From Octopus vulgaris (taxonomy: Eukaryota): a stretch of 64,000 nucleotides of DNA. Each line of letters opens with the position of its first letter. The first letter of the stretch is position 1. Of the stretch, positions 707 to 20,707 are shown in pieces. The stretch covers positions 9,610,001-9,674,000 of the forward strand of contig OX597821.1 of the NCBI GenBank assembly GCA_951406725.2, read 5' to 3'. Both the position numbers and the translations under genes were made by a program. The notes beneath the pieces are model-generated. The model did no database searches and had not been told where the DNA came from. It worked only from the letters and a program-made list of their open reading frames with translations.

Positions 707-963
707 AGAAGGACAGACAAGTGATGCTGGCGGATGGGGCCGTCGGTATCACTCTCATATATCATTTTTCATATTCCATTTTGCTCATATATATGTAATT
801 GTGATGTTCCATGTCCCCATGTCTTGTAATGTCCCCCTCTTCGTTGGCCCCTTGTGGGTAATAAAAAATCACGTGGTTTTTTCGGCTCTGTGTTTTTTGC
901 TCTCTGTGAAATTCGGTAAAAAGAAAAAGAACAAAAAGTGAATGGTTGTTGGTGTAAAATTTT

Positions 964-1045
964 GAACATAGTTGATGAGGTTTCGCGTCTCACTGGTTCT
1001 GCGCGTTACACTTTTTCGGTTCGGGAGGCCGTTTCTCGGCCGGAG
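964..1045 (+). promoter_or_regulatory. Two GC/CpG-rich stem-loops in the 5'UTR just upstream of the ATG (present in all full units; B version at 12678-12770)
   Basis: Type A: GAAC-A-UAGU...ACUG-GUUC and UUUCGGU-U-CGGGAGG...UUUCUCG-GCCGGAG. Type B: CUGAACG-GCG-UU-GACGCG(GUUU)CGCGUU-U-CGC-U-CGUUCAG and UUUUCUGUU-UUGGCGG-CCG(UUUU)CGG-U-CUGUCA-GACAGAAGG. Folded by eye. Confidence 0.6.
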
Positions 1046-1051
1046 GCGACT

Positions 1052-2380
1052 ATGAGCCGCCTCCATCAAGCGGAGGAGATGGAAGGGAGAATTTACTCTG
1101 AAATTTCGACGGAAGTATCGACATCTGAGGAGGAGTTGGCGGTGAAAAAGATGGAAGGCACCTACGCAGGTGTAACGAAGAAGTCAACGGAAAGAGAGAT
1201 AGACTTGGCTAAGTTGGCGGGCCTCCAGGAATTTGTGAAGGAGGACGAGAACGGTGAAGTTGAGCTGCTGCATCCAGTAGGGTGCGGAGACTGGTTCCAT
1301 CGTAGAACCATTAAATATAAAGTATTTATGAATGGAGGTAGAAAGATGGAAGTAATTAACATGGAAGCAATTGAAGAGGCTCTTAAGCAGACGGGAGAGG
1401 AAATTGTGTACATGACGAAAGGATTACAATACGGAACGATAACGGTGCAATTTAAAAGTGAAAAAGCAGCCAGGAATGTAGCAGCCAAGGTGGTGAGTAC
1501 AGAAAAGATTTACTTGTTACCCTCGTATCTGAATAGGCGGACAACTAGAATTAGGGTGGAGGGAATACCTCCACACCTAGAGGGCGAAGTAATAACGGCT
1601 GCGGTTATAAAAGGAAATGAGGATAAGGTGGACATCCTCCACGCCAGTATGAAGTATGAAGGCGTGAGAGGTGCCACACTGGTTATGAACATTCAAACGG
1701 AGGCGGATGTTATAGAGAAGATTACGGACAGCATAAAGACTGGAAATATTATTATGAGAGTGTGGGTGGAGGGTAGGGCGCCCAGGTGCTACAAGTGTGG
1801 CCAAAGGGGTCACATAAGAGCCTACTGCCCTCCCCCACCAAAGGAAAAAGAAAAGGAAAGCGTTGAGGAAGCCTCGGGAGAGGAAGAAAATAAACAGAAA
1901 CAAACAGAGAAGGAAACGACAGAAGAAGAGGAGATGCAACAAGAGTGGAAAGAAGCGGGAACAAAGAGAAAAAGAAGGAAAAAGAAAAACTGTGCGAAGC
2001 CCCAACCCACCCCGACACCACCCATACCCTTGGAGTCCCATCCTTCCCCTGCAAACAGTAATTCCACCCACTCCCCGCCTACAAGAAAAATAAAAACAGA
2101 CACACAGAGCAAAGAAAGTCCCAAGACCCATTTTTTATTTGTTATACATGGGAAAGACATACAAAACGTTAAAAAACTGGTGTTAACCAAGTGGTACGAA
2201 CACGAAGATTGGAGCTACACGGTTGTGGATAGTGATGATACGGGTATATTGGCGACAAGGTTAGAGGAAGAGGGTGTGTGTTGGAAGTCAGTGAAAATGA
2301 AAGATGAATGGAGAGAGAGGGCTAAAAGAAAAACGAATGTTGTGATAGGTGAAACAGGAATACAAATTGGAAATGGGTGA
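1052..2380 (+). CDS. Unit 2 ORF1p/Gag-like protein, 442 aa (Tx1/L1 ORF1p or ZCCHC3-like); C-terminal type A1
   Basis: The first ATG conserved in all type-A units is GCGACTATG at 1052. Motifs: TYAGVTKK; RRM-like GTITVQFKSEKAAR...TRIRVEGIPP; VWVEGRAPRCYKCGQRGHIRAYC (CX2CX4HX4C); KRKRRKKK NLS-like stretch; Pro-rich linker. Confidence 0.85.
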   Translation: MSRLHQAEEMEGRIYSEISTEVSTSEEELAVKKMEGTYAGVTKKSTEREIDLAKLAGLQEFVKEDENGEVELLHPVGCGDWFHRRTIKYKVFMNGGRKMEVINMEAIEEALKQTGEEIVYMTKGLQYGTITVQFKSEKAARNVAAKVVSTEKIYLLPSYLNRRTTRIRVEGIPPHLEGEVITAAVIKGNEDKVDILHASMKYEGVRGATLVMNIQTEADVIEKITDSIKTGNIIMRVWVEGRAPRCYKCGQRGHIRAYCPPPPKEKEKESVEEASGEEENKQKQTEKETTEEEEMQQEWKEAGTKRKRRKKKNCAKPQPTPTPPIPLESHPSPANSNSTHSPPTRKIKTDTQSKESPKTHFLFVIHGKDIQNVKKLVLTKWYEHEDWSYTVVDSDDTGILATRLEEEGVCWKSVKMKDEWRERAKRKTNVVIGETGIQIGNG

Positions 2381-2394
2381 AGAAGGACAGACAA

Positions 2395-2426
2395 GTGATG
2401 CTGGCGGATGGGGCCGTCGGTATCAC
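2395..2426 (+). promoter_or_regulatory. Conserved 3'UTR RNA hairpin (13-15 bp stem, ANGGGG loop), repeated in every unit (e.g. 721-752, 14184-14219, 17543-17578)
   Basis: GUGAUGCUGGCGG-AUGGGG-CCGUCGGUAUCAC; the variants in units 9 and 11 keep every pair through G-U/G-C/A-U swaps. Confidence 0.75.
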
Positions 2427-2726
2427 TCTCATATATCATTTTTCATATTCCATTTTGCTCATATATATGTAATTGTGATGTTCCATGTCCCCATGTCTTG
2501 TAATGTCCCCCTCTTCGTTGGCCCCTTGTGGGTAATAAAAAATCACGTGGTTTTTTCGGCTCTGTGTTTTTTGCTCTCTGTGAAATTCGGTAAAAAGAAA
2601 AAAGAACAAAAAGTGAATGGTTGTTGGTGTAAAATTTTGAACATAGTTGATGAGGTTTCGCGTCTCACTGGTTCTGCGCGTTACACTTTTTCGGTTCGGG
2701 AGGCCGTTTCTCGGCCGGAGGCGACT

Positions 2727-4055
2727 ATGAGCCGCCTCCATCAAGCGGAGGAGATGGAAGGGAGAATTTACTCTGAAATTTCGACGGAAGTATCGACATC
2801 TGAGGAGGAGTTGGCGGTGAAAAAGATGGAAGGCACCTACGCAGGTGTAACGAAGAAGTCAACGGAAAGAGAGATAGACTTGGCTAAGTTGGCGGGCCTC
2901 CAGGAATTTGTGAAGGAGGACGAGAACGGTGAAGTTGAGCTGCTGCATCCAGTAGGGTGCGGAGACTGGTTCCATCGTAGAACCATTAAATATAAAGTAT
3001 TTATGAATGGAGGTAGAAAGATGGAAGTAATTAACATGGAAGCAATTGAAGAGGCTCTTAAGCAGACGGGAGAGGAAATTGTGTACATGACGAAAGGATT
3101 ACAATACGGAACGATAACGGTGCAATTTAAAAGTGAAAAAGCAGCCAGGAATGTAGCAGCCAAGGTGGTGAGTACAGAAAAGATTTACTTGTTACCCTCG
3201 TATCTGAATAGGCGGACAACTAGAATTAGGGTGGAGGGAATACCTCCACACCTAGAGGGCGAAGTAATAACGGCTGCGGTTATAAAAGGAAATGAGGATA
3301 AGGTGGACATCCTCCACGCCAGTATGAAGTATGAAGGCGTGAGAGGTGCCACACTGGTTATGAACATTCAAACGGAGGCGGATGTTATAGAGAAGATTAC
3401 GGACAGCATAAAGACTGGAAATATTATTATGAGAGTGTGGGTGGAGGGTAGGGCGCCCAGGTGCTACAAGTGTGGCCAAAGGGGTCACATAAGAGCCTAC
3501 TGCCCTCCCCCACCAAAGGAAAAAGAAAAGGAAAGCGTTGAGGAAGCCTCGGGAGAGGAAGAAAATAAACAGAAACAAACAGAGAAGGAAACGACAGAAG
3601 AAGAGGAGATGCAACAAGAGTGGAAAGAAGCGGGAACAAAGAGAAAAAGAAGGAAAAAGAAAAACTGTGCGAAGCCCCAACCCACCCCGACACCACCCAT
3701 ACCCTTGGAGTCCCATCCTTCCCCTGCAAACAGTAATTCCACCCACTCCCCGCCTACAAGAAAAATAAAAACAGACACACAGAGCAAAGAAAGTCCCAAG
3801 ACCCATTTTTTATTTGTTATACATGGGAAAGACATACAAAACGTTAAAAAACTGGTGTTAACCAAGTGGTACGAACACGAAGATTGGAGCTACACGGTTG
3901 TGGATAGTGATGATACGGGTATATTGGCGACAAGGTTAGAGGAAGAGGGTGTGTGTTGGAAGTCAGTGAAAATGAAAGATGAATGGAGAGAGAGGGCTAA
4001 AAGAAAAACGAATGTTGTGATAGGTGAAACAGGAATACAAATTGGAAATGGGTGA
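2727..4055 (+). CDS. Unit 3 ORF1p/Gag-like protein, 442 aa, type A1
   Basis: Intact ORF with the same protein sequence as unit 2. Confidence 0.85.
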   Translation: MSRLHQAEEMEGRIYSEISTEVSTSEEELAVKKMEGTYAGVTKKSTEREIDLAKLAGLQEFVKEDENGEVELLHPVGCGDWFHRRTIKYKVFMNGGRKMEVINMEAIEEALKQTGEEIVYMTKGLQYGTITVQFKSEKAARNVAAKVVSTEKIYLLPSYLNRRTTRIRVEGIPPHLEGEVITAAVIKGNEDKVDILHASMKYEGVRGATLVMNIQTEADVIEKITDSIKTGNIIMRVWVEGRAPRCYKCGQRGHIRAYCPPPPKEKEKESVEEASGEEENKQKQTEKETTEEEEMQQEWKEAGTKRKRRKKKNCAKPQPTPTPPIPLESHPSPANSNSTHSPPTRKIKTDTQSKESPKTHFLFVIHGKDIQNVKKLVLTKWYEHEDWSYTVVDSDDTGILATRLEEEGVCWKSVKMKDEWRERAKRKTNVVIGETGIQIGNG

Positions 4056-4401
4056 AGAAGGACAGACAAGTGATGCTGGCGGATGGGGCCGTCGGTATCA
4101 CTCTCATATATCATTTTTCATATTCCATTTTGCTCATATATATGTAATTGTGATGTTCCATGTCCCCATGTCTTGTAATGTCCCCCTCTTCGTTGGCCCC
4201 TTGTGGGTAATAAAAAATCACGTGGTTTTTTCGGCTCTGTGTTTTTTGCTCTCTGTGAAATTCGGTAAAAAGAAAAAAGAACAAAAAGTGAATGGTTGTT
4301 GGTGTAAAATTTTGAACATAGTTGATGAGGTTTCGCGTCTCACTGGTTCTGCGCGTTACACTTTTTCGGTTCGGGAGGCCGTTTCTCGGCCGGAGGCGAC
4401 T

Positions 4402-5730
4402 ATGAGCCGCCTCCATCAAGCGGAGGAGATGGAAGGGAGAATTTACTCTGAAATTTCGACGGAAGTATCGACATCTGAGGAGGAGTTGGCGGTGAAAAAG
4501 ATGGAAGGCACCTACGCAGGTGTAACGAAGAAGTCAACGGAAAGAGAGATAGACTTGGCTAAGTTGGCGGGCCTCCAGGAATTTGTGAAGGAGGACGAGA
4601 ACGGTGAAGTTGAGCTGCTGCATCCAGTAGGGTGCGGAGACTGGTTCCATCGTAGAACCATTAAATATAAAGTATTTATGAATGGAGGTAGAAAGATGGA
4701 AGTAATTAACATGGAAGCAATTGAAGAGGCTCTTAAGCAGACGGGAGAGGAAATTGTGTACATGACGAAAGGATTACAATACGGAACCATAACGGTGCAA
4801 TTTAAAAGTGAAAAAGCAGCCAGGAATGTAGCAGCCAAGGTGGTGAGTACAGAAAAGATTTACTTGTTACCCTCGTATCTGAATAGGCGGACAACTAGAA
4901 TTAGGGTGGAGGGAATACCTCCACACCTAGAGGGCGAAGTAATAACGGCTGCGGTTATAAAAGGAAATGAGGATAAGGTGGACATCCTCCACGCCAGTAT
5001 GAAGTATGAAGGCGTGAGAGGTGCCACACTGGTTATGAACATTCAAACGGAGGCGGATGTTATAGAGAAGATTACGGACAGCATAAAGACTGGAAATATT
5101 ATTATGAGAGTGTGGGTGGAGGGTAGGGCGCCCAGGTGCTACAAGTGTGGCCAAAGGGGTCACATAAGAGCCTACTGCCCTCCCCCACCAAAGGAAAAAG
5201 AAAAGGAAAGCGTTGAGGAAGCCTCGGGAGAGGAAGAAAATAAACAGAAACAAACAGAGAAGGAAACGACAGAAGAAGAGGAGATGCAACAAGAGTGGAA
5301 AGAAGCGGGAACAAAGAGAAAAAGAAGGAAAAAGAAAAACTGTGCGAAGCCCCAACCCACCCCGACACCACCCATACCCTTGGAGTCCCATCCTTCCCCT
5401 GCAAACAGTAATTCCACCCACTCCCCGCCTACAAGAAAAATAAAAACAGACACACAGAGCAAAGAAAGTCCCAAGACCCATTTTTTATTTGTTATACATG
5501 GGAAAGACATACAAAACGTTAAAAAACTGGTGTTAACCAAGTGGTACGAACACGAAGATTGGAGCTACACGGTTGTGGATAGTGATGATACGGGTATATT
5601 GGCGACAAGGTTAGAGGAAGAGGGTGTGTGTTGGAAGTCAGTGAAAATGAAAGATGAATGGAGAGAGAGGGCTAAAAGAAAAACGAATGTTGTGATAGGT
5701 GAAACAGGAATACAAATTGGAAATGGGTGA
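4402..5730 (+). CDS. Unit 4 ORF1p/Gag-like protein, 442 aa, type A1
   Basis: Intact ORF; one synonymous ACG>ACC change relative to unit 2. Confidence 0.85.
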   Translation: MSRLHQAEEMEGRIYSEISTEVSTSEEELAVKKMEGTYAGVTKKSTEREIDLAKLAGLQEFVKEDENGEVELLHPVGCGDWFHRRTIKYKVFMNGGRKMEVINMEAIEEALKQTGEEIVYMTKGLQYGTITVQFKSEKAARNVAAKVVSTEKIYLLPSYLNRRTTRIRVEGIPPHLEGEVITAAVIKGNEDKVDILHASMKYEGVRGATLVMNIQTEADVIEKITDSIKTGNIIMRVWVEGRAPRCYKCGQRGHIRAYCPPPPKEKEKESVEEASGEEENKQKQTEKETTEEEEMQQEWKEAGTKRKRRKKKNCAKPQPTPTPPIPLESHPSPANSNSTHSPPTRKIKTDTQSKESPKTHFLFVIHGKDIQNVKKLVLTKWYEHEDWSYTVVDSDDTGILATRLEEEGVCWKSVKMKDEWRERAKRKTNVVIGETGIQIGNG

Positions 5731-6076
5731 AGAAGGACAGACAAGTGATGCTGGCGGATGGGGCCGTCGGTATCACTCTCATATATCATTTTTCATATTC
5801 CATTTTGCTCATATATATGTAATTGTGATGTTCCATGTCCCCATGTCTTGTAATGTCCCCCTCTTCGTTGGCCCCTTGTGGGTAATAAAAAATCACGTGG
5901 TTTTTTCGGCTCTGTGTTTTTTGCTCTCTGTGAAATTCGGTAAAAAGAAAAAAGAACAAAAAGTGAATGGTTGTTGGTGTAAAATTTTGAACATAGTTGA
6001 TGAGGTTTCGCGTCTCACTGGTTCTGCGCGTTACACTTTTTCGGTTCGGGAGGCCGTTTCTCGGCCGGAGGCGACT

Positions 6077-7405
6077 ATGAGCCGCCTCCATCAAGCGGAG
6101 GAGATGGAAGGGAGAATTTACTCTGAAATTTCGACGGAAGTATCGACATCTGAGGAGGAGTTGGCGGTGAAAAAGATGGAAGGCACCTACGCAGGTGTAA
6201 CGAAGAAGTCAACGGAAAGAGAGATAGACTTGGCTAAGTTGGCGGGCCTCCAGGAATTTGTGAAGGAGGACGAGAACGGTGAAGTTGAGCTGCTGCATCC
6301 AGTAGGGTGCGGAGACTGGTTCCATCGTAGAACCATTAAATATAAAGTATTTATGAATGGAGGTAGAAAGATGGAAGTAATTAACATGGAAGCAATTGAA
6401 GAGGCTCTTAAGCAGACGGGAGAGGAAATTGTGTACATGACGAAAGGATTACAATACGGAACGATAACGGTGCAATTTAAAAGTGAAAAAGCAGCCAGGA
6501 ATGTAGCAGCCAAGGTGGTGAGTACAGAAAAGATTTACTTGTTACCCTCGTATCTGAATAGGCGGACAACTAGAATTAGGGTGGAGGGAATACCTCCACA
6601 CCTAGAGGGCGAAGTAATAACGGCTGCGGTTATAAAAGGAAATGAGGATAAGGTGGACATCCTCCACGCCAGTATGAAGTATGAAGGCGTGAGAGGTGCC
6701 ACACTGGTTATGAACATTCAAACGGAGACGGATGTTATAGAGAAGATTACGGACAGCATAAAGACTGGAAATATTATTATGAGAGTGTGGGTGGAGGGTA
6801 GGGCGCCCAGGTGCTACAAGTGTGGCCAAAGGGGTCACATAAGAGCCTACTGCCCTCCCCCACCAAAGGAAAAAGAAAAGGAAAGCGTTGAGGAAGCCTC
6901 GGGAGAGGAAGAAAATAAACAGAAACAAACAGAGAAGGAAACGACAGAAGAAGAGGAGATGCAACAAGAGTGGAAAGAAGCGGGAACAAAGAGAAAAAGA
7001 AGGAAAAGGAAAAACTGTGCGAAGCCCCAACCCACCCCGACACCACCCATACCCTTGGAGTCCCATCCTTCCCCTGCAAACAGTAATTCCACCCACTCCC
7101 CGCCTACAAGAAGAATAAAAACAGACACACAGAGCAAAGAAAGTCCCAAGTCCCATTTTTTATTTGTTATACATGGGAGAGACGTACAAAACGTTAAAAA
7201 ACTGGTGTTAACCAAGTGGTACGAACACGAAGATTGGAGCTACACGGCTGTGGATGGTGATGATACGGGTATATTGGCGACAAGGTTAGAGGAAGAGGGT
7301 GTGTGTTGGAAGTCAGTGGAAATGAAAGATGAATGGATAGAGAGGGCTAAAAGAAAAACGAATGTTGTGATGGTTAAAAGAGGAATACTAATTGAAAATG
7401 GGTGA
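6077..7405 (+). CDS. Unit 5 ORF1p/Gag-like protein, 442 aa, C-terminal type A2
   Basis: Intact ORF; C-terminus reads ...GRDVQNV...AVDGDD...MVKRGILIENG. Confidence 0.85.
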   Translation: MSRLHQAEEMEGRIYSEISTEVSTSEEELAVKKMEGTYAGVTKKSTEREIDLAKLAGLQEFVKEDENGEVELLHPVGCGDWFHRRTIKYKVFMNGGRKMEVINMEAIEEALKQTGEEIVYMTKGLQYGTITVQFKSEKAARNVAAKVVSTEKIYLLPSYLNRRTTRIRVEGIPPHLEGEVITAAVIKGNEDKVDILHASMKYEGVRGATLVMNIQTETDVIEKITDSIKTGNIIMRVWVEGRAPRCYKCGQRGHIRAYCPPPPKEKEKESVEEASGEEENKQKQTEKETTEEEEMQQEWKEAGTKRKRRKRKNCAKPQPTPTPPIPLESHPSPANSNSTHSPPTRRIKTDTQSKESPKSHFLFVIHGRDVQNVKKLVLTKWYEHEDWSYTAVDGDDTGILATRLEEEGVCWKSVEMKDEWIERAKRKTNVVMVKRGILIENG

Positions 7406-7750
7406 AGAAGGACAGATAAGTGATGCTGGCGGATGGGGCCGTCGGTATCGCTCTCATATATCATTTTCATATTCCATTTTGCTCATATATATGTAATTGT
7501 GATGTTCCATGTCCCCATGTCTTGTAATGTCCCCCTCTTCGTTGGCCCCTTGTGGGTAATAAAAAATCACGCGGTTTTTTCGGCTCTGTGTTTTTTGCTC
7601 TCTGTGAAATTCGGTAAAAAGAAAAAAGAACAAAAAGTGAATGGTTGTTGGTGTAAAATTTTGAACATAGTTAATGCGGTTTCGCGTCTCACTGGTTCTG
7701 CGCGTTACACTTTTTCGGTTCGGGAGGCCGTTTCTCGGCCGGAGGCGACT

Positions 7751-9079
7751 ATGAGCCGCCTCCATCAAGCGGAGGAGATGGAAGGGAGAATTTACTCTGA
7801 AATTTCGACGGAAGTATCGACATCTGAGGAGGAGTTGGCGGTGAAAAAGATGGAAGGCACCTACGCAGGTGTAACGAAGAAGTCAACGGAAAGAGAGATA
7901 GACTTGGCTAAGTTGGCGGGCCTCCAGGAATTTGTGAAGGAGGACGAGAACGGTGAAGTTGAGCTGCTGCATCCAGTAGGGTGCGGAGACTGGTTCCATC
8001 GTAGAACCATTAAATATAAAGTATTTATGAATGGAGGTAGAAAGATGGAAGTAATTAACATGGAAGCAATTGAAGAGGCTCTTAAGCAGACGGGAGAGGA
8101 AATTGTGTACATGACGAAAGGATTACAATACGGAACCATAACGGTGCAATTTAAAAGTGAAAAAGCAGCCAGGAATGTAGCAGCCAAGGTGGTGAGTACA
8201 GAAAAGATTTACTTGTTACCCTCGTATCTGAATAGGCGGACAACTAGAATTAGGGTGGAGGGAATACCTCCACACCTAGAGGGCGAATTAATAACGGCTG
8301 CGGTTATAAAAGGAAATGAAGATAAAGTGGACATCCTCCACGCCATTATGAAGTATGAAGGCGTGAGAGGTGCCACACTAGTTATGAACGTTCAAACGGA
8401 GGCGGATGTTATAGAGAAGATTACGGACAGCATAAAGACTGGAAATATTATTATGAGAGTGTGGGTGGAGGGTAGGGCGCCCAGGTGCTACAAGTGTGGC
8501 CAAAGGGGTCACATAAGAGCCTACTGCCCTCCCCCACCAAAGGAAAAAGAAAAGGAAAGCGTTGAGGAAGCCTCGGGAGAGGAAGAAAATAAACAGAAAC
8601 AAACAGAGAAGGAAACGACAGAAGAAGAGGAGATGCAACAAGAGTGGAAAGAAGCGGGAACAAAGAGAAAAAGAAGGAAAAAGAAAAACTGTGCGAAGCC
8701 CCAACCCACCCCGACACCACCCATACCCTTGGAGTCCCATCCTTCCCCTGCAAACAGTAATTCCACCCACTCCCCGCCTACAAGAAGAATAAAAACAGAC
8801 ACACAGAGCAAAGAAAGTCCCAAGACCCATTTTTTATTTGTTATACATGGGAGAGACGTACAAAACGTTAAAAAACTGGTGTTAACCAAGTGGTACGAAC
8901 ACGAAGATTGGAGCTACACGGCTGTGGATGGTGATGATACGGGTATATTGGCGACAAGGTTAGAGGAAGAGGGTGTGTGTTGGAAGACAGTGGAAATGAA
9001 AGATGAATGGATAGAGAGGGCTAAAAGAAAAACGAATGTTGTGATGGTTAAAACAGGAATACTAATTGAAAATGGGTGA
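7751..9079 (+). CDS. Unit 6 ORF1p/Gag-like protein, 442 aa, type A2
   Basis: Intact ORF with the central variant block (ELIT, HAIM, NVQT) and an A2 C-terminus. Confidence 0.85.
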   Translation: MSRLHQAEEMEGRIYSEISTEVSTSEEELAVKKMEGTYAGVTKKSTEREIDLAKLAGLQEFVKEDENGEVELLHPVGCGDWFHRRTIKYKVFMNGGRKMEVINMEAIEEALKQTGEEIVYMTKGLQYGTITVQFKSEKAARNVAAKVVSTEKIYLLPSYLNRRTTRIRVEGIPPHLEGELITAAVIKGNEDKVDILHAIMKYEGVRGATLVMNVQTEADVIEKITDSIKTGNIIMRVWVEGRAPRCYKCGQRGHIRAYCPPPPKEKEKESVEEASGEEENKQKQTEKETTEEEEMQQEWKEAGTKRKRRKKKNCAKPQPTPTPPIPLESHPSPANSNSTHSPPTRRIKTDTQSKESPKTHFLFVIHGRDVQNVKKLVLTKWYEHEDWSYTAVDGDDTGILATRLEEEGVCWKTVEMKDEWIERAKRKTNVVMVKTGILIENG

Positions 9080-9423
9080 AGAAGGACAGATAAGTGATGC
9101 TGGCGGATGGGGCCGTCGGTATCGCTCTCATATATCATTTTCATATTCCATTTTGCTCATATATATGTAATTGTGATGTTCCATGTCCCCATGTCTTGTA
9201 ATGTCCCCCTCTTCGTTGGCCCCTTGTGGGTAATAAAAAATCACGTGGTTTTTCGGCTCCGTGTTTTTTGCTCTCTGTGAAATTCGGTAAAAAGAAAAAA
9301 GAACAAAAAGTGAATGGTTGTTGGTGTAAAATTTTGAACATAGTTAATGCGGTTTCGCGTCTCACTGGTTCTGCGCGTTACACTTTTTCGGTTCGGGAGG
9401 CCGTTTCTCGGCCGGAGGCGACT

Positions 9424-10752
9424 ATGAGCCGCCTCCATCAAGCGGAGGAGATGGAAGGGAGAATTTACTCTGAAATTTCGACGGAAGTATCGACATCTGA
9501 GGAGGAGTTGGCGGTGAAAAAGATGGAAGGCACCTACGCAGGTGTAACGAAGAAGTCAACGGAAAGAGAGATAGACTTGGCTAAGTTGGCGGGCCTCCAG
9601 GAATTTGTGAAGGAGGACGAGAACGGTGAAGTTGAGCTGCTGCATCCAGTAGGGTGCGGAGACTGGTTCCATCGTAGAACCATTAAATATAAAGTATTTA
9701 TGAATGGAGGTAGAAAGATGGAAGTAATTAACATGGAAGCAATTGAAGAGGCTCTTAAGCAGACGGGAGAGGAAATTGTGTACATGACGAAAGGATTACA
9801 ATACGGAACCATAACGGTGCAATTTAAAAGTGAAAAAGCAGCCAGGAATGTAGCAGCCAAGGTGGTGAGTACAGAAAAGATTTACTTGTTACCCTCGTAT
9901 CTGAATAGGCGGACAACTAGAATTAGGGTGGAGGGAATACCTCCACACCTAGAGGGCGAAGTAATAACGGCTGCGGTTATAAAAGGAAATGAGGATAAGG
10001 TGGACATCCTCCACGCCAGTATGAAGTATGAAGGCGTGAGAGGTGCCACACTGGTTATGAACATTCAAACGGAGGCGGATGTTATAGAGAAGATTACGGA
10101 CAGCATAAAGACTGGAAATATTATTATGAGAGTGTGGGTGGAGGGTAGGGCGCCCAGGTGCTACAAGTGTGGCCAAAGGGGTCACATAAGAGCCTACTGC
10201 CCTCCCCCACCAAAGGAAAAAGAAAAGGAAAGCGTTGAGGAAGCCTCGGGAGAGGAAGAAAATAAACAGAAACAAACAGAGAAGGAAACGACAGAAGAAG
10301 AGGAGATGCAACAAGAGTGGAAAGAAGCGGGAACAAAGAGAAAAAGAAGGAAAAAGAAAAACTGTGCGAAGCCCCAACCCACCCCGACATCACCCATACC
10401 CTTGGAGTCCCATCCTTCCCCTGCAAACAGTAATTCCACCCACTCCCCGCCTACAAGAAGAATAAAAACAGACACACAGAGCAAAGAAAGTCCCAAGTCC
10501 CATTTTTTATTTGTTATACATGGGAGAGACGTACAAAACGTTAAAAAACTGGTGTTAACCAAGTGGTACGAACACGAAGATTGGAGCTACACGGCTGTGG
10601 ATGGTGATGATACGGGTATATTGGCGACAAGGTTAGAGGAAGAGGGTGTGTGTTGGAAGTCAGTGGAAATGAAAGATGAATGGATAGAGAGGGCTAAAAG
10701 AAAAACGAATGTTGTGATGGTTAAAACAGGAATACTAATTGAAAATGGGTGA
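9424..10752 (+). CDS. Unit 7 ORF1p/Gag-like protein, 442 aa, type A2
   Basis: Intact ORF; unit-2-like centre with an A2 C-terminus. Confidence 0.85.
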   Translation: MSRLHQAEEMEGRIYSEISTEVSTSEEELAVKKMEGTYAGVTKKSTEREIDLAKLAGLQEFVKEDENGEVELLHPVGCGDWFHRRTIKYKVFMNGGRKMEVINMEAIEEALKQTGEEIVYMTKGLQYGTITVQFKSEKAARNVAAKVVSTEKIYLLPSYLNRRTTRIRVEGIPPHLEGEVITAAVIKGNEDKVDILHASMKYEGVRGATLVMNIQTEADVIEKITDSIKTGNIIMRVWVEGRAPRCYKCGQRGHIRAYCPPPPKEKEKESVEEASGEEENKQKQTEKETTEEEEMQQEWKEAGTKRKRRKKKNCAKPQPTPTSPIPLESHPSPANSNSTHSPPTRRIKTDTQSKESPKSHFLFVIHGRDVQNVKKLVLTKWYEHEDWSYTAVDGDDTGILATRLEEEGVCWKSVEMKDEWIERAKRKTNVVMVKTGILIENG

Positions 10753-11097
10753 AGAAGGACAGATAAGTGATGCTGGCGGATGGGGCCGTCGGTATCGCTC
10801 TCATATATCATTTTCATATTCCATTTTTGCTCATATAAATGTAATTGTGATGTTCCATGTCCCCATGTCTTGTAATGTCCCCCTCTTCGTTGGCCCCTTG
10901 TGGGTAATAAAAAATCACGTGGTTTTTCGGCTCTGTGTTTTTTGCTCTCTGTGAAATTCGGTAAAAAGAAAAAAGAACAAAAAGTGAATGGTTGTTGGTG
11001 TAAAATTTTGAACATAGTTGATGAGGTTTCGCGTCTCACTGGTTCTGCGCGTTACACTTTTTCGGTTCGGGAGGCCGTTTCTCGGCCGGAGGCGACT

Positions 11098-12426
11098 ATG
11101 AGCCGCCTCCATCAAGCGGAGGAGATGGAAGGGAGAATTTACTCTGAAATTTCGACGGAAGTATCGACATCTGAGGAGGAGTTGGCGGTGAAAAAGATGG
11201 AAGGCACCTACGCAGGTGTAACGAAGAAGTCAACGGAAAGAGAGATAGACTTGGCTAAGTTGGCGGGCCTCCAGGAATTTGTGAAGGAGGACGAGAACGG
11301 TGAAGTTGAGCTGCTGCATCCAGTAGGGTGCGGAGACTGGTTCCATCGTAGAACCATTAAATATAAAGTATTTATGAATGGAGGTAGAAAGATGGAAGTA
11401 ATTAACATGGAAGCAATTGAAGAGGCTCTTAAGCAGACGGGAGAGGAAATTGTGTACATGACGAAAGGATTACAATACGGAACGATAACGGTGCAATTTA
11501 AAAGTGAAAAAGCAGCCAGGAATGTAGCAGCCAAGGTGGTGAGTACAGAAAAGATTTACTTGTTACCCTCGTATCTGAATAGGCGGACAACTAGAATTAG
11601 GGTGGAGGGAATACCTCCACACCTAGAGGGCGAAGTAATAACGGCTGCGGTTATAAAAGGAAATGAGGATAAGGTGGACATCCTCCACGCCAGTATGAAG
11701 TATGAAGGCGTGAGAGGTGCCACACTGGTTATGAACATTCAAACGGAGGCGGATGTTATAGAGAAGATTACGGACAGCATAAAGACTGGAAATATTATTA
11801 TGAGAGTGTGGGTGGAGGGTAGGGCGCCCAGGTGCTACAAGTGTGGCCAAAGGGGTCACATAAGAGCCTACTGCCCTCCCCCACCAAAGGAAAAAGAAAA
11901 GGAAAGCGTTGAGGAAGCCTCGGGAGAGGAAGAAAATAAACAGAAACAAACAGAGAAGGAAACGACAGAAGAAGAGGAGATGCAACAAGAGTGGAAAGAA
12001 GCGGGAACAAAGAGAAAAAGAAGGAAAAAGAAAAACTGTGCGAAGCCCCAACCCACCCCGACACCACCCATACCCTTGGAGTCCCATCCTTCCCCTGCAA
12101 ACAGTAATTCCACCCACTCCCCGCCTACAAGAAAAATAAAAACAGACACACAGAGCAAAGAAAGTCCCAAGACCCATTTTTTATTTGTTATACATGGGAA
12201 AGACATACAAAACGTTAAAAAACTGGTGTTAACCAAGTGGTACGAACACGAAGATTGGAGCTACACGGTTGTGGATAGTGATGATACGGGTATATTGGCG
12301 ACAAGGTTAGAGGAAGAGGGTGTGTGTTGGAAGTCAGTGAAAATGAAAGATGAATGGAGAGAGAGGGCTAAAAGAAAAACGAATGTTGTGATAGGTGAAA
12401 CAGGAATACAAATTGGAAATGGGTGA
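11098..12426 (+). CDS. Unit 8 ORF1p/Gag-like protein, 442 aa, type A1
   Basis: Intact ORF with the same protein sequence as unit 2. Confidence 0.85.
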   Translation: MSRLHQAEEMEGRIYSEISTEVSTSEEELAVKKMEGTYAGVTKKSTEREIDLAKLAGLQEFVKEDENGEVELLHPVGCGDWFHRRTIKYKVFMNGGRKMEVINMEAIEEALKQTGEEIVYMTKGLQYGTITVQFKSEKAARNVAAKVVSTEKIYLLPSYLNRRTTRIRVEGIPPHLEGEVITAAVIKGNEDKVDILHASMKYEGVRGATLVMNIQTEADVIEKITDSIKTGNIIMRVWVEGRAPRCYKCGQRGHIRAYCPPPPKEKEKESVEEASGEEENKQKQTEKETTEEEEMQQEWKEAGTKRKRRKKKNCAKPQPTPTPPIPLESHPSPANSNSTHSPPTRKIKTDTQSKESPKTHFLFVIHGKDIQNVKKLVLTKWYEHEDWSYTVVDSDDTGILATRLEEEGVCWKSVKMKDEWRERAKRKTNVVIGETGIQIGNG

Positions 12427-12772
12427 AGAAGGACAGACAAGTGATGCTGGCGGATGGGGCCGTCGGTATCACTCTCATATATCATTTTTCATATTCCATT
12501 TTGCTCATATATATGTAATTGTGATGTTCCATGTCCCCATGTCTTGTAATGTCCCCCTCTTCGTTGGCCCCTTGTGGGTAATAAAAAATCACGTGGTTTT
12601 TTCGGCTCCGTGTTTTTTTTCGGCTCCTGAAAATTCGGTAAAAAAGAACAAAAAAGGTTGTTGTTGTTGTGGAAATTCTGAACGGCGTTGACGCGGTTTC
12701 GCGTTTCGCTCGTTCAGCGCGTTACACTTTTTCTGTTTTGGCGGCCGTTTTCGGTCTGTCAGACAGAAGGAA

Positions 12773-14189
12773 ATGGACTATGAGTCTTTAACAGACTTGT
12801 CCACGACGGATGAGGAACTGGAACAGGCAATTGCAGTGAAGCTGATGGAGGAAAAGGCTGGAGTTTTTGAGTCTTTATCAGACTTGCCTATGTCTGAGAA
12901 GGAGCTAGAAATGGCAGCAAGGAAATTGGAAGACAAGCTGAGTTATACCTATGCCGGTGTAACCAAGAAGGCGGAAGAGAAAGGGGTCGACATGGTCAAG
13001 TTGCCAAGTTACCAGAAATACATGAAAAAGGAAAGCGGTGAGGTGGAACTATCACCGACACCCAGGAGAAAAGAATGGTATGATAAGAGGACCATTGTTT
13101 ACAGGGTGTGCGCAAACGAAAGGAAGAGGGTAGAAGTTGTATCCATGGAATGGATAGAGGAAGCCCTGCGAAGAACTGAGGAGGAAATAAATTTTCTGAC
13201 TCGAGGATCCAAGTACGGGACCGTAGTTGTGCACTTTAAAAGTGAATCGGCAGCGAGGAAGATGGCAGCGAAGGCGGTGAAGTCGGAAAAGGTAACACTG
13301 TTACCTACGTATTTAAACAGGAGGATTACACGAATAAGGGTGGAGGGAGTGCCACCAAACGTGGAGGCAGAATGGATTGTGGCGGCTGTGATCAGCGGCC
13401 ACGAGGACGAAGTGGATATTCTCCATGCCTCGGTTAAGTCCGAGGGCTGGAGAGGCGTAACAGTGGAGCTGAACGTACAGGCAGAGACCGAGGTACTGGT
13501 GGACCTGACGGAAAGCATCAGACTGGGAGAAGTGATCATGAGAGTGTGGGTGGAGGGCAGGGCTCCACGTTGTTACAAGTGTGGCCTGAGGGGTCACATA
13601 AGAGCCTTCTGCCCTCCCCAGGGAAAGAAATGGATCCCGAACCAGAGAGAGAGAAGCAGAAACCAGAGGAGAAGGAAACAGAGGAAGAGAATACACAGAA
13701 ATGGAAGGAAGCTGGAAGTAAGAGGAAGAGAAGAATATGTGGAAAAAAGAAAATAATATGGAACTCCAATCTACCCCAAAACCTCCCACACCCTCTGAGT
13801 CCCACCCTATCCATGCAGACATTGAACCCACCCGCTCCCCCCCAACAAGAAAACAAAAGAAAAAAAAGAATACACACACACAAGAGATTGAAATCGAACC
13901 CAGGCCGTACATTTGTACTATGACTGAACAGAGGGAAGTTAAAAGTCTAATGGAAGAGTATAAACGGTATGATGTTGGAGAGACTAGGTATGCTGTGATT
14001 GAAAAAAAGAACATAGGTGAGTTTATGGGGAGGTGTGAAAGGGAGAATTGGGAGGTGAAAGATATAAGAATGAGCGATGAATTCGTGGAAAATATGAATG
14101 AGTATTTCGGAGTAAGAATGGATATGGAATTTATTCGTATTGGCAAAGAACATTCAAGTGACTATGAAAAACAAAGGACAGGTAAGTGA
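12773..14189 (+). pseudogene. Unit 9: divergent subfamily B ORF1p/Gag-like gene with two -1 frameshifts (possibly sequencing errors)
   Basis: Homologous protein is split over ORFs 12773-13756, 13546-13923 and 13737-14189 (TYAGVTKK, RIRVEGVPP, VWVEGRAPRCYKCGLRGHIRAFC, ...RIGKEHSSDYEKQRTGK*). The shifts fall in a C-run (~13618) and an A-run (~13745-13753). Confidence 0.8.
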
Positions 14190-14523
14190 TGCTGACGGAC
14201 GGGGCCGTTGGTATCGCTTTCATTTTATCATTTTTTTCGTTTAACACTTCATGTTCATATAGTTTAATTATAATGTTCTATGTCCCCATGTTTTGTGATG
14301 TCCGGCACTCTTCGTAGCCCCTTAGTGGGTAATAAAGAAATACGTGGTTTTTTCGGCTCTGTGTTTTTTGCTCTCTGTGAAATTCGGTAAAAAGAAAAAA
14401 GAACAAAAAGTGAATGGTTGTTGGTGTAAAATTTTGAACATAGTTGATGAGGTTTCGCGTCTCACTGGTTCTGCGCGTTACACTTTTTCGGTTCGGGAGG
14501 CCGTTTCTCGGCCGGAGGCGACT

Positions 14524-15852
14524 ATGAGCCGCCTCCATCAAGCGGAGGAGATGGAAGGGAGAATTTACTCTGAAATTTCGACGGAAGTATCGACATCTGA
14601 GGAGGAGTTGGCGGTGAAAAAGATGGAAGGCACCTACGCAGGTGTAACGAAGAAGTCAACGGAAAGAGAGATAGACTTGGCTAAGTTGGCGGGCCTCCAG
14701 GAGTTTGTGAAGGAGGACGAGAACGGTGAAGTCGAGCTGCTGCATCCAGTAGGGCGCGGAGACTGGTTCCATCGTAGAACCATTAAATATAAAGTATTTA
14801 TGAATGGAGGTAGAAAGATGGAAGTAATCAACATGGAAGCAATTGAAGAGGCTCTCAAGCAGACAGGAGAGGAAATTGTGTACATGACAAAAGGATTACA
14901 ATACGGAACGATAACGGTGCAATTTAAAAGCGAAAAAGCAGCCAGGAATGTAGCAGCCAAGGTGGTGAGTACAGAAAAGATTTACTTGTTACCCTCGTAT
15001 CTGAATAGGCGGACAACTAGAATTAGGGTGGAGGGAATACCTCCACACCTAGAGGGCGAATTAATAACGGCTGCGGTTATAAAAGGAAATGAAGATAAAG
15101 TGGACATCCTCCACGCCATTATGAAGTATGAAGGCGTGAGAGGTGCCACACTAGTTATGAACGTTCAAACGGAGGCGGATGTTATAGAGAAGATTACGGA
15201 CAGCATAAAGACTGGAAATATTATTATGAGAGTGTGGGTGGAGGGTAGGGCGCCCAGGTGCTACAAGTGTGGCCAAAGGGGTCACATAAGAGCCTACTGC
15301 CCTCCCCCACCAAAGGAAAAAGAAAAGGAAAGCGTTGAGGAAGCCTCGGGAGAGGAAGAAAATAAACAGAAACAAACAGAGAAGGAAACGACAGAAGAAG
15401 AGGAGATGCAACAAGAGTGGAAAGAAGCGGGAACAAAGAGAAAAAGAAGGAAAAAGAAAAACTGTGCGAAGCCCCAACCCACCCCGACACCACCCATACC
15501 CTTGGAGTCCCATCCTTCCCCTGCAAACAGTAATTCCACCCACTCCCCGCCTACAAGAAGAATAAAAACAGACACACAGAGCAAAGAAAGTCCCAAGACC
15601 CATTTTTTATTTGTTATACATGGGAGAGACGTACAAAACGTTAAAAAACTGGTGTTAACCAAGTGGTACGAACACGAAGATTGGAGCTACACGGCTGTGG
15701 ATGGTGATGATACGGGTATATTGGCGACAAGGTTAGAGGAAGAGGGTGTGTGTTGGAAGACAGTGGAAATGAAAGATGAATGGATAGAGAGGGCTAAAAG
15801 AAAAACGAATGTTGTGATGGTTAAAACAGGAATACTAATTGAAAATGGGTGA
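14524..15852 (+). CDS. Unit 10 ORF1p/Gag-like protein, 442 aa, type A2 with more diverged core
   Basis: Intact ORF; by my count 10 synonymous and 4 non-synonymous core differences from unit 2. Confidence 0.85.
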   Translation: MSRLHQAEEMEGRIYSEISTEVSTSEEELAVKKMEGTYAGVTKKSTEREIDLAKLAGLQEFVKEDENGEVELLHPVGRGDWFHRRTIKYKVFMNGGRKMEVINMEAIEEALKQTGEEIVYMTKGLQYGTITVQFKSEKAARNVAAKVVSTEKIYLLPSYLNRRTTRIRVEGIPPHLEGELITAAVIKGNEDKVDILHAIMKYEGVRGATLVMNVQTEADVIEKITDSIKTGNIIMRVWVEGRAPRCYKCGQRGHIRAYCPPPPKEKEKESVEEASGEEENKQKQTEKETTEEEEMQQEWKEAGTKRKRRKKKNCAKPQPTPTPPIPLESHPSPANSNSTHSPPTRRIKTDTQSKESPKTHFLFVIHGRDVQNVKKLVLTKWYEHEDWSYTAVDGDDTGILATRLEEEGVCWKTVEMKDEWIERAKRKTNVVMVKTGILIENG

Positions 15853-16175
15853 AGAAGGACAGATAAGTGATGCTGGCGGATGGGGCCGTCGGTATCGCTC
15901 TCATATATCATTTTCATATTCCATTTTGCTCATATATATGTAATTGTGATGTTCCATGTCCCCATGTCTTGTAATGTCCCCCTCTTCGTTGGCCCCTTGT
16001 GGGTAATAAAAAATCACGTGGTTTTTTCGGCTCCTGAAATTCGGTAAAAAAGAACAAAAAGTGAATGGTTGTTGTTGTGGAAATTCTGAACGGCGTTGAC
16101 GCGGTTTCGCGTTTCGCTCGTTCAGCGCGTTACACTTTTTCTGATTTGGCGGCCGTTTTTCGGTCGGAGGCGACT

Positions 16176-17548
16176 ATGAGCCGCCTCCATCAAGCGGAGG
16201 AGATGGAAGGGAGAATTTACTCTGAAATTTCGACGGAAGTATCGACATCTGAGGAGGAGTTGGCGGTGAAAAAGATGGAAGGCACCTACGCAGGTGTAAC
16301 GAAGAAGTCAACGGAAAGAGAGATAGACCTGGCTAAGTTGGCGGGCCTCCAGGAGTTTGTGAAGGAGGACGAGAACGGTGAAGTCGAGCTGCTGCATCCA
16401 GTAGGGCGCGGAGACTGGTTCCATCGTAGAACCATTAAATATAAAGTATTTATGAATGGAGGTAGAAAGATGGAAGTAATCAACATGGAAGCAATTGAAG
16501 AGGCTCTCAAGCAGACAGGAGAGGAAATTGTGTACATGACAAAAGGATTACAATACGGAACGATAACGGTGCAATTTAAAAGCGAAAAAGCAGCCAGGAA
16601 TGTAGCAGCCAAGGTGGTGAGTACAGAAAAGATTTACTTGTTACCCTCGTATCTGAATAGGCGGACAACCAGAATTAGGGTGGAGGGAATACCTCCACAC
16701 CTAGAGGGCGAATTAATAACGGCTGCGGTTATAAAGGAAATGAAGATAAAGTGGACATCCTCCACGCCATTATGAAGTATGAAGGCGTGAGAGGTGCCAC
16801 ACTAGTTATGAACATTCAAGCGGAGGCGGATGTTATAGAGAGGATTACGGACAGCATAAAAACTGGAAATATTATTATGAGAGTGTGGGTGGAGGGTAGG
16901 GCGCCCAGGTGCTACAAGTGTGGCCAAAGGGGTCACATAAAAGCCTACTGCCCTCCCCCACCAAAGGAAAAAGAAAAGGAAAGCGTTGAGGAAGCCTCAG
17001 GAGAGGAAGAAAATAAACAGAAACAAACAGAGAAGGAAACGACAGAAGAAGAGGAGATGCAACAAGAGTGGAAAGAAGGGGGAACAAAGAGAAAAAGAAG
17101 GAAAAAGAAAAACTGTGCGAAGCCCCAACCCACCCCGACACCACCCATACCCTTGGAGTCCCATCCTTCCCCTGCAGACAGTGAACCCACCTGCTCCCCT
17201 CCAACAAGAAAACAAAAGAAAAATAATAATACAGACAGACAAGAGTTTGAAAACGAACCCAGGCCGAACATTTATATTGTGACGGAACAGAAAGAGGTTG
17301 AAAGGGTAATGGAGGAGTATGAATGGTATGAAATGGATGGGACCAGATATGCAGTGCTGGAAAAGAAGAATATAGATGAGTTTGTGTTGAGGTGTGAAAG
17401 GGAGAATTGGGAGGTGAAAGATACAAGAATGAGCGATGAATTCGTGGAATATATGGAGGACAGTTTCGGAGTAAGAATGGATATGGATGGTCTTCGTATT
17501 GGGAATGAACATTCAGGTAACAGTGAAATCAAAAGGACAGGTAAGTGA
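16176..17548 (+). pseudogene. Unit 11: chimeric ORF1p/Gag-like gene (B-type 5'UTR, A-type core, B-like C-terminal domain) with one frameshift
   Basis: ATAAAGGAAA replaces ATAAAAGGAAA at ~16733 (one A lost). The sequence switches to B-like at ~17178 (ADSEPTCSPPTRKQKK...RIGNEHSGNSEIKRTGK*). Confidence 0.8.
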
Positions 17549-17682
17549 TGCTGGCGGAGGGGGCCGTTAGCATCGCTTTCATATTATCATTTTTCATTTT
17601 CATTTGCTCATAAATTTAATCATATTGTTCTATGTCCCCCATGTTTTGTTATGTCCGCCATTCTTCGTAGCCCCTGGTGGGT

Positions 17683-17688
17683 AATAAA
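17683..17688 (+). terminator. AATAAA polyadenylation-signal-like motif at the 3' end of the last unit (same motif in every unit, e.g. 860-865)
   Basis: GGGTAATAAA(A/G)AAAT is conserved in A and B units, 4-5 nt before the junction. Confidence 0.55.
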
Positions 17689-17693
17689 GAAAT

Positions 17694-18012
17694 AGCATGG
17701 AGGAAAGCACCTTCAAAATGTGTCTTGGTGCGACTATGAAAGATATCTAATCAGAGGCGGTAAATTCGCCACAATAGAAGCAAGGTTCGAGTTAACGGAG
17801 CGTGCAAGGGAGTACTCGACTCGAACTTGCAAAGTGGAAATATTTTATTTTTACATTTATATCTGGGACGCAGGGTGTCCCGGAAAAAGACTTAAAATTC
17901 ACCCCCCCCCCCCACCAGAAGTAGAGGTAGGCTGGATTGTAACCACACTTCTATACAAGAGGGAGGACAAGATAGAATTGATCGAAATTACAAGAGACGG
18001 GCTAACAATTCC
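17694..18012 (+). pseudogene. Highly diverged relic of the same ORF1p-like family (RRM-like region only), abutting the array's 3' end
   Basis: YLIRGGKFATIEARFELTERAREYS aligns with FLTRGSKYGTVVVHFKSESAARKMA (unit 9). PPEVEVGWIVTTLLYKREDKIELI aligns with PPNVEAEWIVAAVISGHEDEVDIL. Confidence 0.75.
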
Positions 18013-20707
18013 AGTCTGTTATATATTTTGAGTATTGTTATCACTAGCGATATCAAGATATAACTTTGTATTTTGTATTTTATGTGTAGATGTATATATA
18101 TATAGATGTACATGTAATATGTACACATATATATACACATATATACATGCACTAGCACTATGACCCGGTAACGACGGGTCTTTAATGCTAGTGTATGTAT
18201 ATAATCTCCGTCGATATATGCGTGGTATATTTGTGAAAGGTAGTACAAAATCATACATCCCGAAAAAGAGAAACTCACAATCATAGATTCCTCATAAATA
18301 AGCATAAAAACACAAAAGCAACTACTACCATTTTAATATCCACAAAACGAATGAAAAACCTGCCATATACTTCATATCGGTTGGGCCGTCTATTGTCGGG
18401 TGGCTCATCTAATTACTCCCAAAAGAAAAGTATTCACCTAACATCTGAGCGTGCGCCTAAAGCACTGTCGATGTGAGTGTGCATTTTCCATACGCATACA
18501 CACAGGAACACCTGGAAGCATTAGTTTAGAATGATTTATAATGGGACTGAAATTCTGTAATTTTATAGGGTAATATATTTCTTATCATGCTAGATTTTTA
18601 TAGGAACCGATTACGTATTCACACACACATACACATACACACACGCGTACACACACAGACACACACACACACACATGGATACAATCGAACACACCTGTAC
18701 ACAGAGACCAAAAAAAATATACTCATCTTTCACAAATATCAGTGAACTTCTTACTGGTTATGGAGGTGGGTAGCAGAGATTGAACTAAAGAGGAATAATA
18801 GGATACTGAGGCAATTGCGAGTATAGAAAGAAGCAAAGAGGGTAGGAGGGAAGTGGATGGAAGCGCTACAGTGAAGGATAGGACACTAGGAAAATGAGAG
18901 AGATCGAAAGGTGATAAAAATATAGTAAACGAGAGAGAGAGAGAGGGAGAGGGAGAGAGGGAGAGGGAGAGGGAGAGAGGGAGAGGGAGAGGGAGAGAAA
19001 TCATAGCTAGTAGAAGATGTAGACAAAAAACAATTGAGCAAAGGAGGTGAATATGAGTCTCTGAGGAAAGGGTAATGCTAAAATGTAAGGACTTACTTTT
19101 AGTGAAATACTTTGACTTATTACTCTCACGAGGCACGAAATAAATCTAAGAAGTGATGTAGTATGTGTGGATTCTGCATAAGGACATCATATCACAGTAT
19201 CTGTTGTCTGGATATGAAATCCTTCTCGTGTGTAATGGTTAATGCCTGAATATTTCTTCTTTCAATAAAGATATAATATTTTTCTCAGGATCTTGGGGGT
19301 TATGTCCTTTTCTTTGACACGGAGCATGTGTCTTTTCTTAGCATTCATGTATGTATTTCAGTATCTACATGAAAGAAAAGTAATTCTAGTAACTAGGGAT
19401 TTGGCCTGGATTAGTAAATGGATAAAACCTACTTGGGTGGATAGAAATGATCTCAGAATAAAAGCCTTGTTCTTTTGCATTGTTACTGTTCTTGTTTGTA
19501 TATTTATATGAATTTATCGCTAAGTCAGCGATAATTAGTAGGCATGTTGAGACGGTACGTAATGATGATCATCCCATTTTTGTTCCATGAATACATATAT
19601 AGGATCATATTATGAGAAGTATTTTACACTCTTTTCATAATATTCGTGCAGTATGTAAATAATATTCCACTATTGCGCTCCACGATATAAGTTGAAATTA
19701 AAGTTCCACTTCTGTGGTATTAACGCAATTTTTAGATCAGAAATTTAAATAGGCTAACTCAATATTTTAAGTGAAATCGATCGCAAGTGTTAACCTGAAG
19801 TCCATACCCAGAAAATATATCAATGATATAGCAAACTCAATTGTATCATTAGAAGTAGCGTCATTAATCGTGCCGTTTTCTTCCTACTTAGCATTTATAT
19901 AACATGGCTGGCCGTTGTCCAACAGAGGTTGCATTGTTATAACGTTTTCTCATTTCTTAAGGGCATTTAAAACTTAGGTAAATTTAACTGGCTACAACTT
20001 AGAATCGATTACGTATTTCAGATTCCAGTCTCTGATATATTACATCCATTTCTGTGGTACTTTGCTTGCATTATTTTATTTGCTAATTTCAGTTGTTGGA
20101 CTTCAGCCATGCAGAGATCAGGCTGATAGCGAATAATTGATTGCGCTGACCCCACTATTTATGCTATGGAATTGATGTTTCTGTTCAAAACTATATACCT
20201 TACAAATAGATACGTGATGAAAGTTTGTAGAACATATGTGACAACTTAAAATAATATCAAAGATGATTGCTATATTTTATTTCATTTGTTAATGTGAAAT
20301 GAATTTGATTTCAAATTTCAAATGAAAACTCACCGAGGAAACTACTTTCAGAATGTTCTTATTACCCCTGCTAGCGACATACTGATTATGAGGTATTGAC
20401 TTATGAACATAAGGTCAGGGTTACGCTATCGGTTTTTGTAATTAAGCTAATGTCAACAGTTGTCAAGCGTTGGTACGTAACAATCTCAATAACATACACA
20501 GGCACACACAAACACACACACCTGCATATATAAGCATATGCTTTCTTACATATTTGCATATATATGTATATATGTTTGCGTGTGTGTGTATACATATTTA
20601 TATATATATATATATACGTATATGTATATAAACATATATATATATATACGTATATGTATATATACATATGTATATTTATATATATATATATATACGTATA
20701 TGTATAT

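Follow-up and report, generated by a model that had tools for sequence, protein, structure and literature searches.

The tandem units at the beginning of the window, by which is meant the whole 64,000-nucleotide stretch of Octopus vulgaris DNA analysed here, are almost certainly ORF1-only, non-autonomous non-LTR retroposons of a HAL1-like type, and in one family of them, type A, the C-terminal tail of the encoded protein has probably passed through a recent episode of positive selection, whatever its cause. In all five ORF1 families compared the tail is constrained less than the RRM-knuckle core. The labels HAL1-like, Tx1-like and Helitron-like rest on passages of the literature and on general features of these families; HAL1 (half-L1) itself reportedly goes back to Bao and Jurka in 2010.

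The array and its units

The window begins within the array, which starts at G000:C8:9602507 and comprises 15 units in full, namely 13 of type A, one of type B and one chimera. Units are about 1.67 kb long and consist of a short 5′ UTR, a single ORF of 442 codons and a 3′ stretch of 143-162 bp after the stop codon, as seen in 10/10 window units. The host genome is 2.8 Gb in size and rich in microsatellites. Sequencing runs X1 and X2 span both the unit and the head-to-tail joint, and that these runs derive from RNA is a guess. The features are as follows, in window coordinates.

1..17691, + strand: portion of the array inside the window, head-to-tail (15 units in the full array)
1052..2380, + strand: unit 2 ORF1, type A with the other tail haplotype (tail 2081-2380)
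2727-4055, 4402-5730 and 11098-12426, + strand: units 3, 4 and 8, tail identical in type to that of unit 2
6077..10752, + strand: units 5-7, mosaics within type A, the tails unit-10-like and the cores wholly or partly unit-2-like
12773..14189, + strand: unit 9, type B ORF1-only element, frameshifted
14524..15852, + strand: unit 10 ORF1, 442 aa, type A, intact
14761..15309, + strand: conserved core of unit 10, two predicted RRM-like domains and the CCHC knuckle
15256-15303, + strand: CCHC knuckle of unit 10 (zf-CCHC, E=0.0013, barely below the Pfam cut-off)
15553..15852, + strand: variable C-terminal cassette, codons 344-442 of unit 10 ORF1
15580-15849, + strand: predicted folded part of the unit-10 tail (beta-alpha-beta-beta-alpha-beta-alpha-beta)
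15853..16013, + strand: 3′ UTR of unit 10, with a terminal CCCCTTGTGGGTAATAA motif that is also present in the autonomous LINE
16176..17548, + strand: unit 11, B′-type tail on a type A core, frameshifted
17696..18191, + strand: right arm of the Helitron-like target repeat, from the insertion point to the hairpin and CTAG

The window begins downstream of the left arm of the target, which measures about 675 bp. Elsewhere in the window are two short ORFs; we take the one at 29824-30213 (− strand) to resemble part of a mariner transposase and the one at 38744-39136 (+ strand) part of an R4/Dong-type reverse transcriptase.

ORF1-only retroposons and a candidate helper LINE at one target site

Exact matches to the type-A tail motif (63) and to the type-B motif (246) are spread over many contigs and lie in head-to-tail arrays. 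Among the hallmarks of retrotransposition, poly(A) is present at junctions C1a and C6, target spacers are duplicated in C2a, and one 5′-truncated copy was found. No ORF2 match was found within the units, which share their 3′ end with a young LINE of this genome that has a 1132-aa ORF2. This ORF2 holds an APE endonuclease, a reverse transcriptase and a C-terminal zinc motif (Exo_endo_phos, RVT_1 and zf-RVT), and its best solved relative is human L1 ORF2p (E=7e-65). The common 3′ end and the 3′ target junction suggest that the units may be mobilised in trans by the ORF2 protein of that LINE, whose ORF2 lies immediately 3′ of the array at 8 of 18 examined type-A loci. The idea of a host tandem gene family was rejected, given the dispersal of the units, their mixed order, the 3′ end in common with the LINE and the truncated copies. 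Mammalian L1-derived HAL1 proper was also rejected, given that the CCHC knuckle is present and the L1 ORF1 family is absent from the Pfam matches.

The arrays and the LINEs occupy one position in a repeat of ~1.1 kb with Helitron-type ends, of which empty sites exist; 10/30 sampled target sites were filled. A hairpin with CTAG was found in 19/30 loci and the 5′ end motif in 14/30, in each case within 1.5 kb, and the borders of the repeat fall mostly between A and TC at the start and between CTAG and T at the end. In 25/26 parsed copies the LINE is inserted behind the left arm of the target or behind another element of the site, with a short target duplication. Directly upstream of the LINE copies (n=30) stands the 3′ end of another element in 19 cases, the left arm in six and something else in one, four copies being unparsed. 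The nearest neighbour of the 56 type-A copies was in the same array for 32, in a different array for 20 and tied for four; units are added to arrays by fresh insertion as well as by local duplication. Two earlier candidates, a LINE remnant 3′ of the array and a LINE promoter at an upstream TATA-like motif, were discarded after the empty sites showed a target-repeat arm at these places.

Two further ORF1-only families, C and D, occur in the same stacks. Knuckle-ORF1 families with unrelated-looking tails were seen in or near stacks at L047:5041-6399, L039:2186-3607 and L119:6907-8316 (C, D and a third), and a second LINE family with an ORF2 identity of 72% and the same 3′ end motif lies inside one stack (L051:126-3755). 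An intact young LINE at L048:4827-9575 carries ORF1 and the 1132-aa ORF2, the latter 95-100% identical between loci; its 5′ end retains the right half-site of the target, which lets later elements stack in front of it. Within the C1 74.68-Mb array, part of a type-B unit was noticed in inverted orientation (L048:938-1878).

Units 2 and 10 differ in opposite ways in core and tail

The preliminary description had compared units 2 and 10 by hand, and all 27 differences were reproduced (ORFs 1052-2380 and 14524-15852). Codons 1-343 hold four non-synonymous and ten synonymous changes (4N/10S), and codons 344-442 hold 13N/0S, the same 13 as originally listed (Fisher p=1.5e-4). The start given for the tail, 15555, is off frame, and codon 344 begins at 15553. 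The cut was placed post hoc, which the contrast withstood, the best breakpoint being matched by 1/2000 label permutations for the unit pair and by 1/400 for genome-wide variants. Taken by itself, the 13/13 in the tail gives a p of about 0.02-0.05 with a neutral N fraction of 0.74-0.79. Codons 432-434 carry adjacent changes that had been thought to be possibly one event; they are not, since 432 and 433 changed on the unit-10 side and 434 on the unit-2 side.

The tails of types A and B had been called barely alignable; they are homologous by phmmer (E 2e-6) and about 22% identical. The near-identity reported for the A and B knuckles was found as described; the entire cores, however, are only 62% identical. 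Units 9 and 11 do bear distinct tails, both in frameshifted ORFs. Because units 5-7 are mosaics of both types, a single pair is a poor test, and copies from the whole genome were used.

Probable positive selection on the type-A tail

The type-A set was obtained from 62 full-length copies by removing four with less than 94.5% identity and two that were A>G hypermutated, which left 56 copies at 17 loci; three copies found later were left out, and codons beneath the search motif were skipped. Variants common to at least two loci were taken as marking source lineages. These amounted to 24N/2S in the tail and 16N/19S in the core, corresponding to a pN/pS of 4-5 in the tail (p 0.01-0.02) and about 0.3 in the core (p<0.002). 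At the level of at least three loci the tail showed 23N/0S (stratified p=0.002; 0.04 without A<->G changes), and variants of one locus looked neutral (tail 15/6, core 38/18). Maximum likelihood with codon models gave the tail an omega of 2.56 (p=0.016), being 4.4 on internal branches (p=0.015) and 1.2 on terminal ones; the core had 0.30-0.35 and the RRM-knuckle 0.35. The dN/dS of the type-A tail is about 2-4 overall, with p about 0.02-0.05, uncorrected. Type A is the family that was chosen for looking extreme, and its p multiplied by five families is 0.08-0.17, the single tests spanning 0.002-0.05.

Tests free of kappa and stratified for transitions and transversions gave p=0.033 within the tail. 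Set against the synonymous changes of the whole ORF, the tail has an omega of about 2.2 (stratified p=0.020), and the stratified p is 0.026 with the 5′ UTR added and 0.053 versus core synonymous changes alone. Omega comes to 1.5 (p=0.18) when the 5′ UTR is the sole reference. Transversions account for 13/24 tail N changes versus 3/21 synonymous ones. Beyond the original 13, the tail variants numbered 11N/2S (p about 0.3); those present at three loci were 11N/0S (p 0.03-0.05). In 18 copies with unit-2 or unit-10 tails outside five arrays the counts were 12N/2S for the tail and 11N/11S for the core. Site models favoured M2a over M1a weakly, both in A (p=0.03) and in B (p=0.04), by a test that is sensitive to recombination, and 32/252 site pairs within the tail are four-gamete pairs.

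Possible effects of RNA editing and of constraint on synonymous sites

It is also quite possible, if somewhat doubtful, that the tail is weakly constrained and nothing else, the excess in type A being a lucky draw picked out post hoc to which one burst of ADAR A-to-I editing, fixed by reverse transcription, was added. The variant density per bp is equal in the type-A tail and the 5′ UTR (0.087 and 0.084), as this account would have it. Furthermore, A>G accounts for 5/8 of the tail changes on the unit-10 side, and A>G hypermutation affects 8/135 of the A and B copies; these copies look like ADAR-edited RNA fixed via reverse transcription. Removal of all A<->G changes raised p to 0.29 within the tail and to 0.05 against the whole ORF. 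The A>G edits in the hyper-edited copies are 47N/17S, however, so that editing has no bias towards N, and with the five A>G codons masked the internal omega is still 3.6 (p=0.046). The 23N/0S at three or more loci also tells against a mere draw plus editing.

Clustered A>G changes on the sense strand were seen in two copies, where they make up 40/43 (L063:3867-5192) and 27/37 (L057:3335-4660) of the rare changes, and in six type-B copies too. The clusters are often in TAG/AAG context and limited to the 5′ part of the copies.

A skew produced by constraint on synonymous sites (an overlapping frame, RNA structure or a cis motif) or by assembly error is highly improbable. The type-A tail is slightly short of synonymous changes (2 vs 19, p=0.16; with three loci as the minimum, 0 vs 17, p=0.02), as such a constraint would produce, but the N excess holds against synonymous sites outside the tail, and the same variants turn up again on different chromosomes and in separate, independent runs. 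The preliminary description had itself named an overlapping frame and RNA structure as possible sources of the excess. The other five frames are closed, with 1-7 stops and a longest open stretch of 54 codons, and the RNA of the tail folds less well than its shuffled versions (z=+1.5), which already largely refutes both.

Other ORF1 families

The B set consisted of 71/77 near-full copies after removal of six hyper-edited ones (31 loci before removal; 246 motif matches exist), and the other sets of the best 30 of 210 candidates for C, 30 of 421 for D and 30 of 264 for the ORF1 of the helper LINE. Shared N/S counts in RRM-knuckle and tail, respectively, were 17/29 and 22/6 in B, 5/27 and 9/5 among the best 30 of C, 10/29 and 19/12 in the 30 of D, and 1/9 and 6/1 in the 30 of the LINE; the contrast is significant in each of the four (p 0.0007-0.004). 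Purifying selection on the core, as originally claimed, was found with a dN/dS of 0.04-0.35 in five families.

An omega above 1 did not recur across independent lineages. The pooled tails of B, C, D and LINE are 56N/24S, which is not above neutral, and omega is 0.5-1.1 in the non-A tails, the seven variants of the LINE excepted. By maximum likelihood the B tail has 1.19 overall and 0.89 on internal branches; between B-type tail lineages it is 0.38-1.05, one hyper-edited copy being omitted, as against 0.08 for the A-B core. The non-A tails are thus merely relaxed, low constraint being general and omega above 1 limited to A, and the diversifying selection proposed for the module is probable for type A (dN/dS >1 in a near-complete copy set) and unsupported as a general claim. 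Values of this kind are those expected from weak constraint together with chance, but the A tail is unlike the other tails (Fisher p=0.03), which tells against that account.

Relatives of window 14341-16010 are contained in sequencing runs of two other organisms. Among the 40 listed of 134 rows, synonymous differences predominate in the RRM region and non-synonymous ones in the tail.

Predicted fold and exchange of the tail

A model of the tail made from a 14-row alignment (pLDDT 84) predicts a beta-alpha-beta-beta-alpha-beta core followed by a helix and a strand. Its best structural match was to ferredoxin-like domains and is generic (VIA Z 4.6, rmsd 2.6 over 60 residues); Foldseek gave no match to the model at E<=0.001, and the structure searches gave none to L1-CTD. 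The preliminary description had suggested predicting the fold of the C-terminal ~90 aa and mapping the variable sites onto its surface; a compact alpha/beta fold is predicted, and the changed sites lie in every strand and helix of the model and not in one visible patch. Both length and fold anchors (the W, E and D positions) are retained between A and B tails, a further point against a tail that is only weakly constrained. The core is predicted to be RRM-like from its secondary structure, with low confidence, and a single-sequence model of the whole ORF1 had a pLDDT of 39, too low for use.

Homologues of full ORF1 or of the tail were absent at E<=0.001 from a length-limited index. An unindexed search returned 254 relatives of the core, and among the 150 listed one chimeric fragment alone matches the folded tail. 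In the atlas comparison no score of the tail exceeded 0.79, and the look-alikes of ORF1 were RNA-binding CCHC clusters. The ORF1 core (14761-15309) scores 0.90 against an atlas cluster holding ZCCHC3 RNA-binding domains, which is a lead only; ZCCHC3 is a reported L1 restriction factor.

The tail moves as a block and is exchanged between families as a cassette. Four-gamete pairs were 313/667 between core and tail versus 32/252 within the tail, and A cores carry A tails in 61 copies, B′ in 17, E in five and B in one. In 13 mapped chimeras the core-tail switch point falls at nt 1044-1057. The swap route is likely template switching between co-transcribed RNAs, a process discussed for mouse L1 in passages of PMC3600994.

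What may drive change in the tail

The stretch in unit 10 encodes the C-terminal domain of the ORF1p of such a retroposon, which has ORF1 only and likely relies on reverse transcriptase supplied by the Tx1/L1-like LINE resident in the same genome. Such an ORF1p would act in cis on its own RNA, so that selection could see it, and the fact that the core is under purifying selection in the source lineages suggests a protein that promotes the spread of the RNA encoding it. The tail is a tethered, weakly constrained and swappable module with a probable adaptive episode in type A, driven most plausibly by escape from recognition by a hypothetical host restriction factor. Taken from the borrowed reverse transcriptase through cassette tail and positive selection to host-factor escape, this chain is our tentative preference, at somewhat less than an even chance.

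Real positive selection could also come from competition between elements, through self/non-self assembly of particles or through access to the common ORF2 protein or a crowded site, which we regard as unlikely. One site is common to at least four ORF1-only families and the LINE, and the crowding seen there (10/30 sites filled, another element's 3′ end just upstream in 19/26 parsed LINE copies), two young A tails side by side in the same arrays and, in Drosophila telomeres, the competition between ORF1-only and helper elements reported in parts of PMC13534243 all fit it. The tails of C, D and LINE give phmmer E values above 0.9 versus A, and A, C, D and LINE tails are mutually unalignable, which is awkward for a single ORF2-binding surface. 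Escape from a host factor is judged the likelier driver of the two. Rather unlikely when taken whole is a wider picture of conflict between a community of ORF1-only parasites and their helper LINE for a single insertion site carried by a Helitron, with a previously undescribed alpha/beta tail domain of ORF1p as a positively selected, template-switched recognition cassette, as an interstitial counterpart of the conflict among telomeric elements in Drosophila.

Relation to known systems

In passages of PMC5753468, HAL1 is non-autonomous, has ORF1 only, relies on an autonomous partner and arose repeatedly. The present units likewise encode ORF1 only and presumably depend on a partner; unlike HAL1, with its coiled coil, RRM and CTD, their ORF1 is RRM-like with a CCHC knuckle, and they are target-specific and form multi-family arrays. 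Target-specific Tx1 elements are described in passages of PMC4494074, with Tx1L in Tx1D, and Tx1-Mar and SINEU in Mariner-N4_AMi. As there, an APE-RT LINE and its dependants sit in a non-autonomous DNA transposon, often in tandem; here, however, the target resembles a Helitron and, in place of SINEs, the dependants are ORF1-only elements that code for protein. The helper LINE is called Tx1-like from its target specificity and ORF2 domains.

Head-to-tail ORF1-only families that use the ORF2 of another family are known from the HeT-A-type elements of Drosophila telomeres (PMC13534243, in part). Head-to-tail arrays, a probable reliance on foreign ORF2 and one contested niche are in common, whereas HeT-A-type elements belong to the Jockey clade and are telomeric and the present ones are interstitial, L1/Tx1-like and of no known host benefit. 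For mammalian L1 ORF1p, passages of PMC3600994 and PMC5940361 describe adaptive evolution with a fast N-terminal coiled coil and a conserved CTD, and an arms-race precedent located in the coiled coil (PMC3600994). A conserved RNA-binding core, here predicted, is again joined to a fast and exchangeable part, but this part is a predicted C-terminal globular domain with no L1-CTD match in the searches made. Tandem arrays of transposable elements may arise by double insertion and unequal exchange, R1 being an example in passages of 10.1101/158386; successive insertion at one site followed by local expansion is similar here, several coding families being mixed, unlike in R1.

No prior description of this system was found in the literature searched, a scope outside which Repbase, Dfam and subscription journals lay. 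PMC13282606 reports 13 recently active L1-Tx1 families in an octopus genome, and the word ORF1 does not occur in its main text; its supplementary library may contain these elements.

These elements bear on two questions, namely why LINE derivatives that lack autonomy retain an ORF1 under selection, and what role the variable parts of ORF1p have. The genome offers a natural comparison set of five ORF1 families at one target, with young intact copies and natural core-tail chimeras, in which one tail has a signal of positive selection, at the protein end opposite to that of mammalian L1. If the tail is merely relaxed, a target-specific element community that looks undescribed is left, of interest mainly to transposon specialists. 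The genome also preserves records of A>G hyper-edited retroposon RNA.
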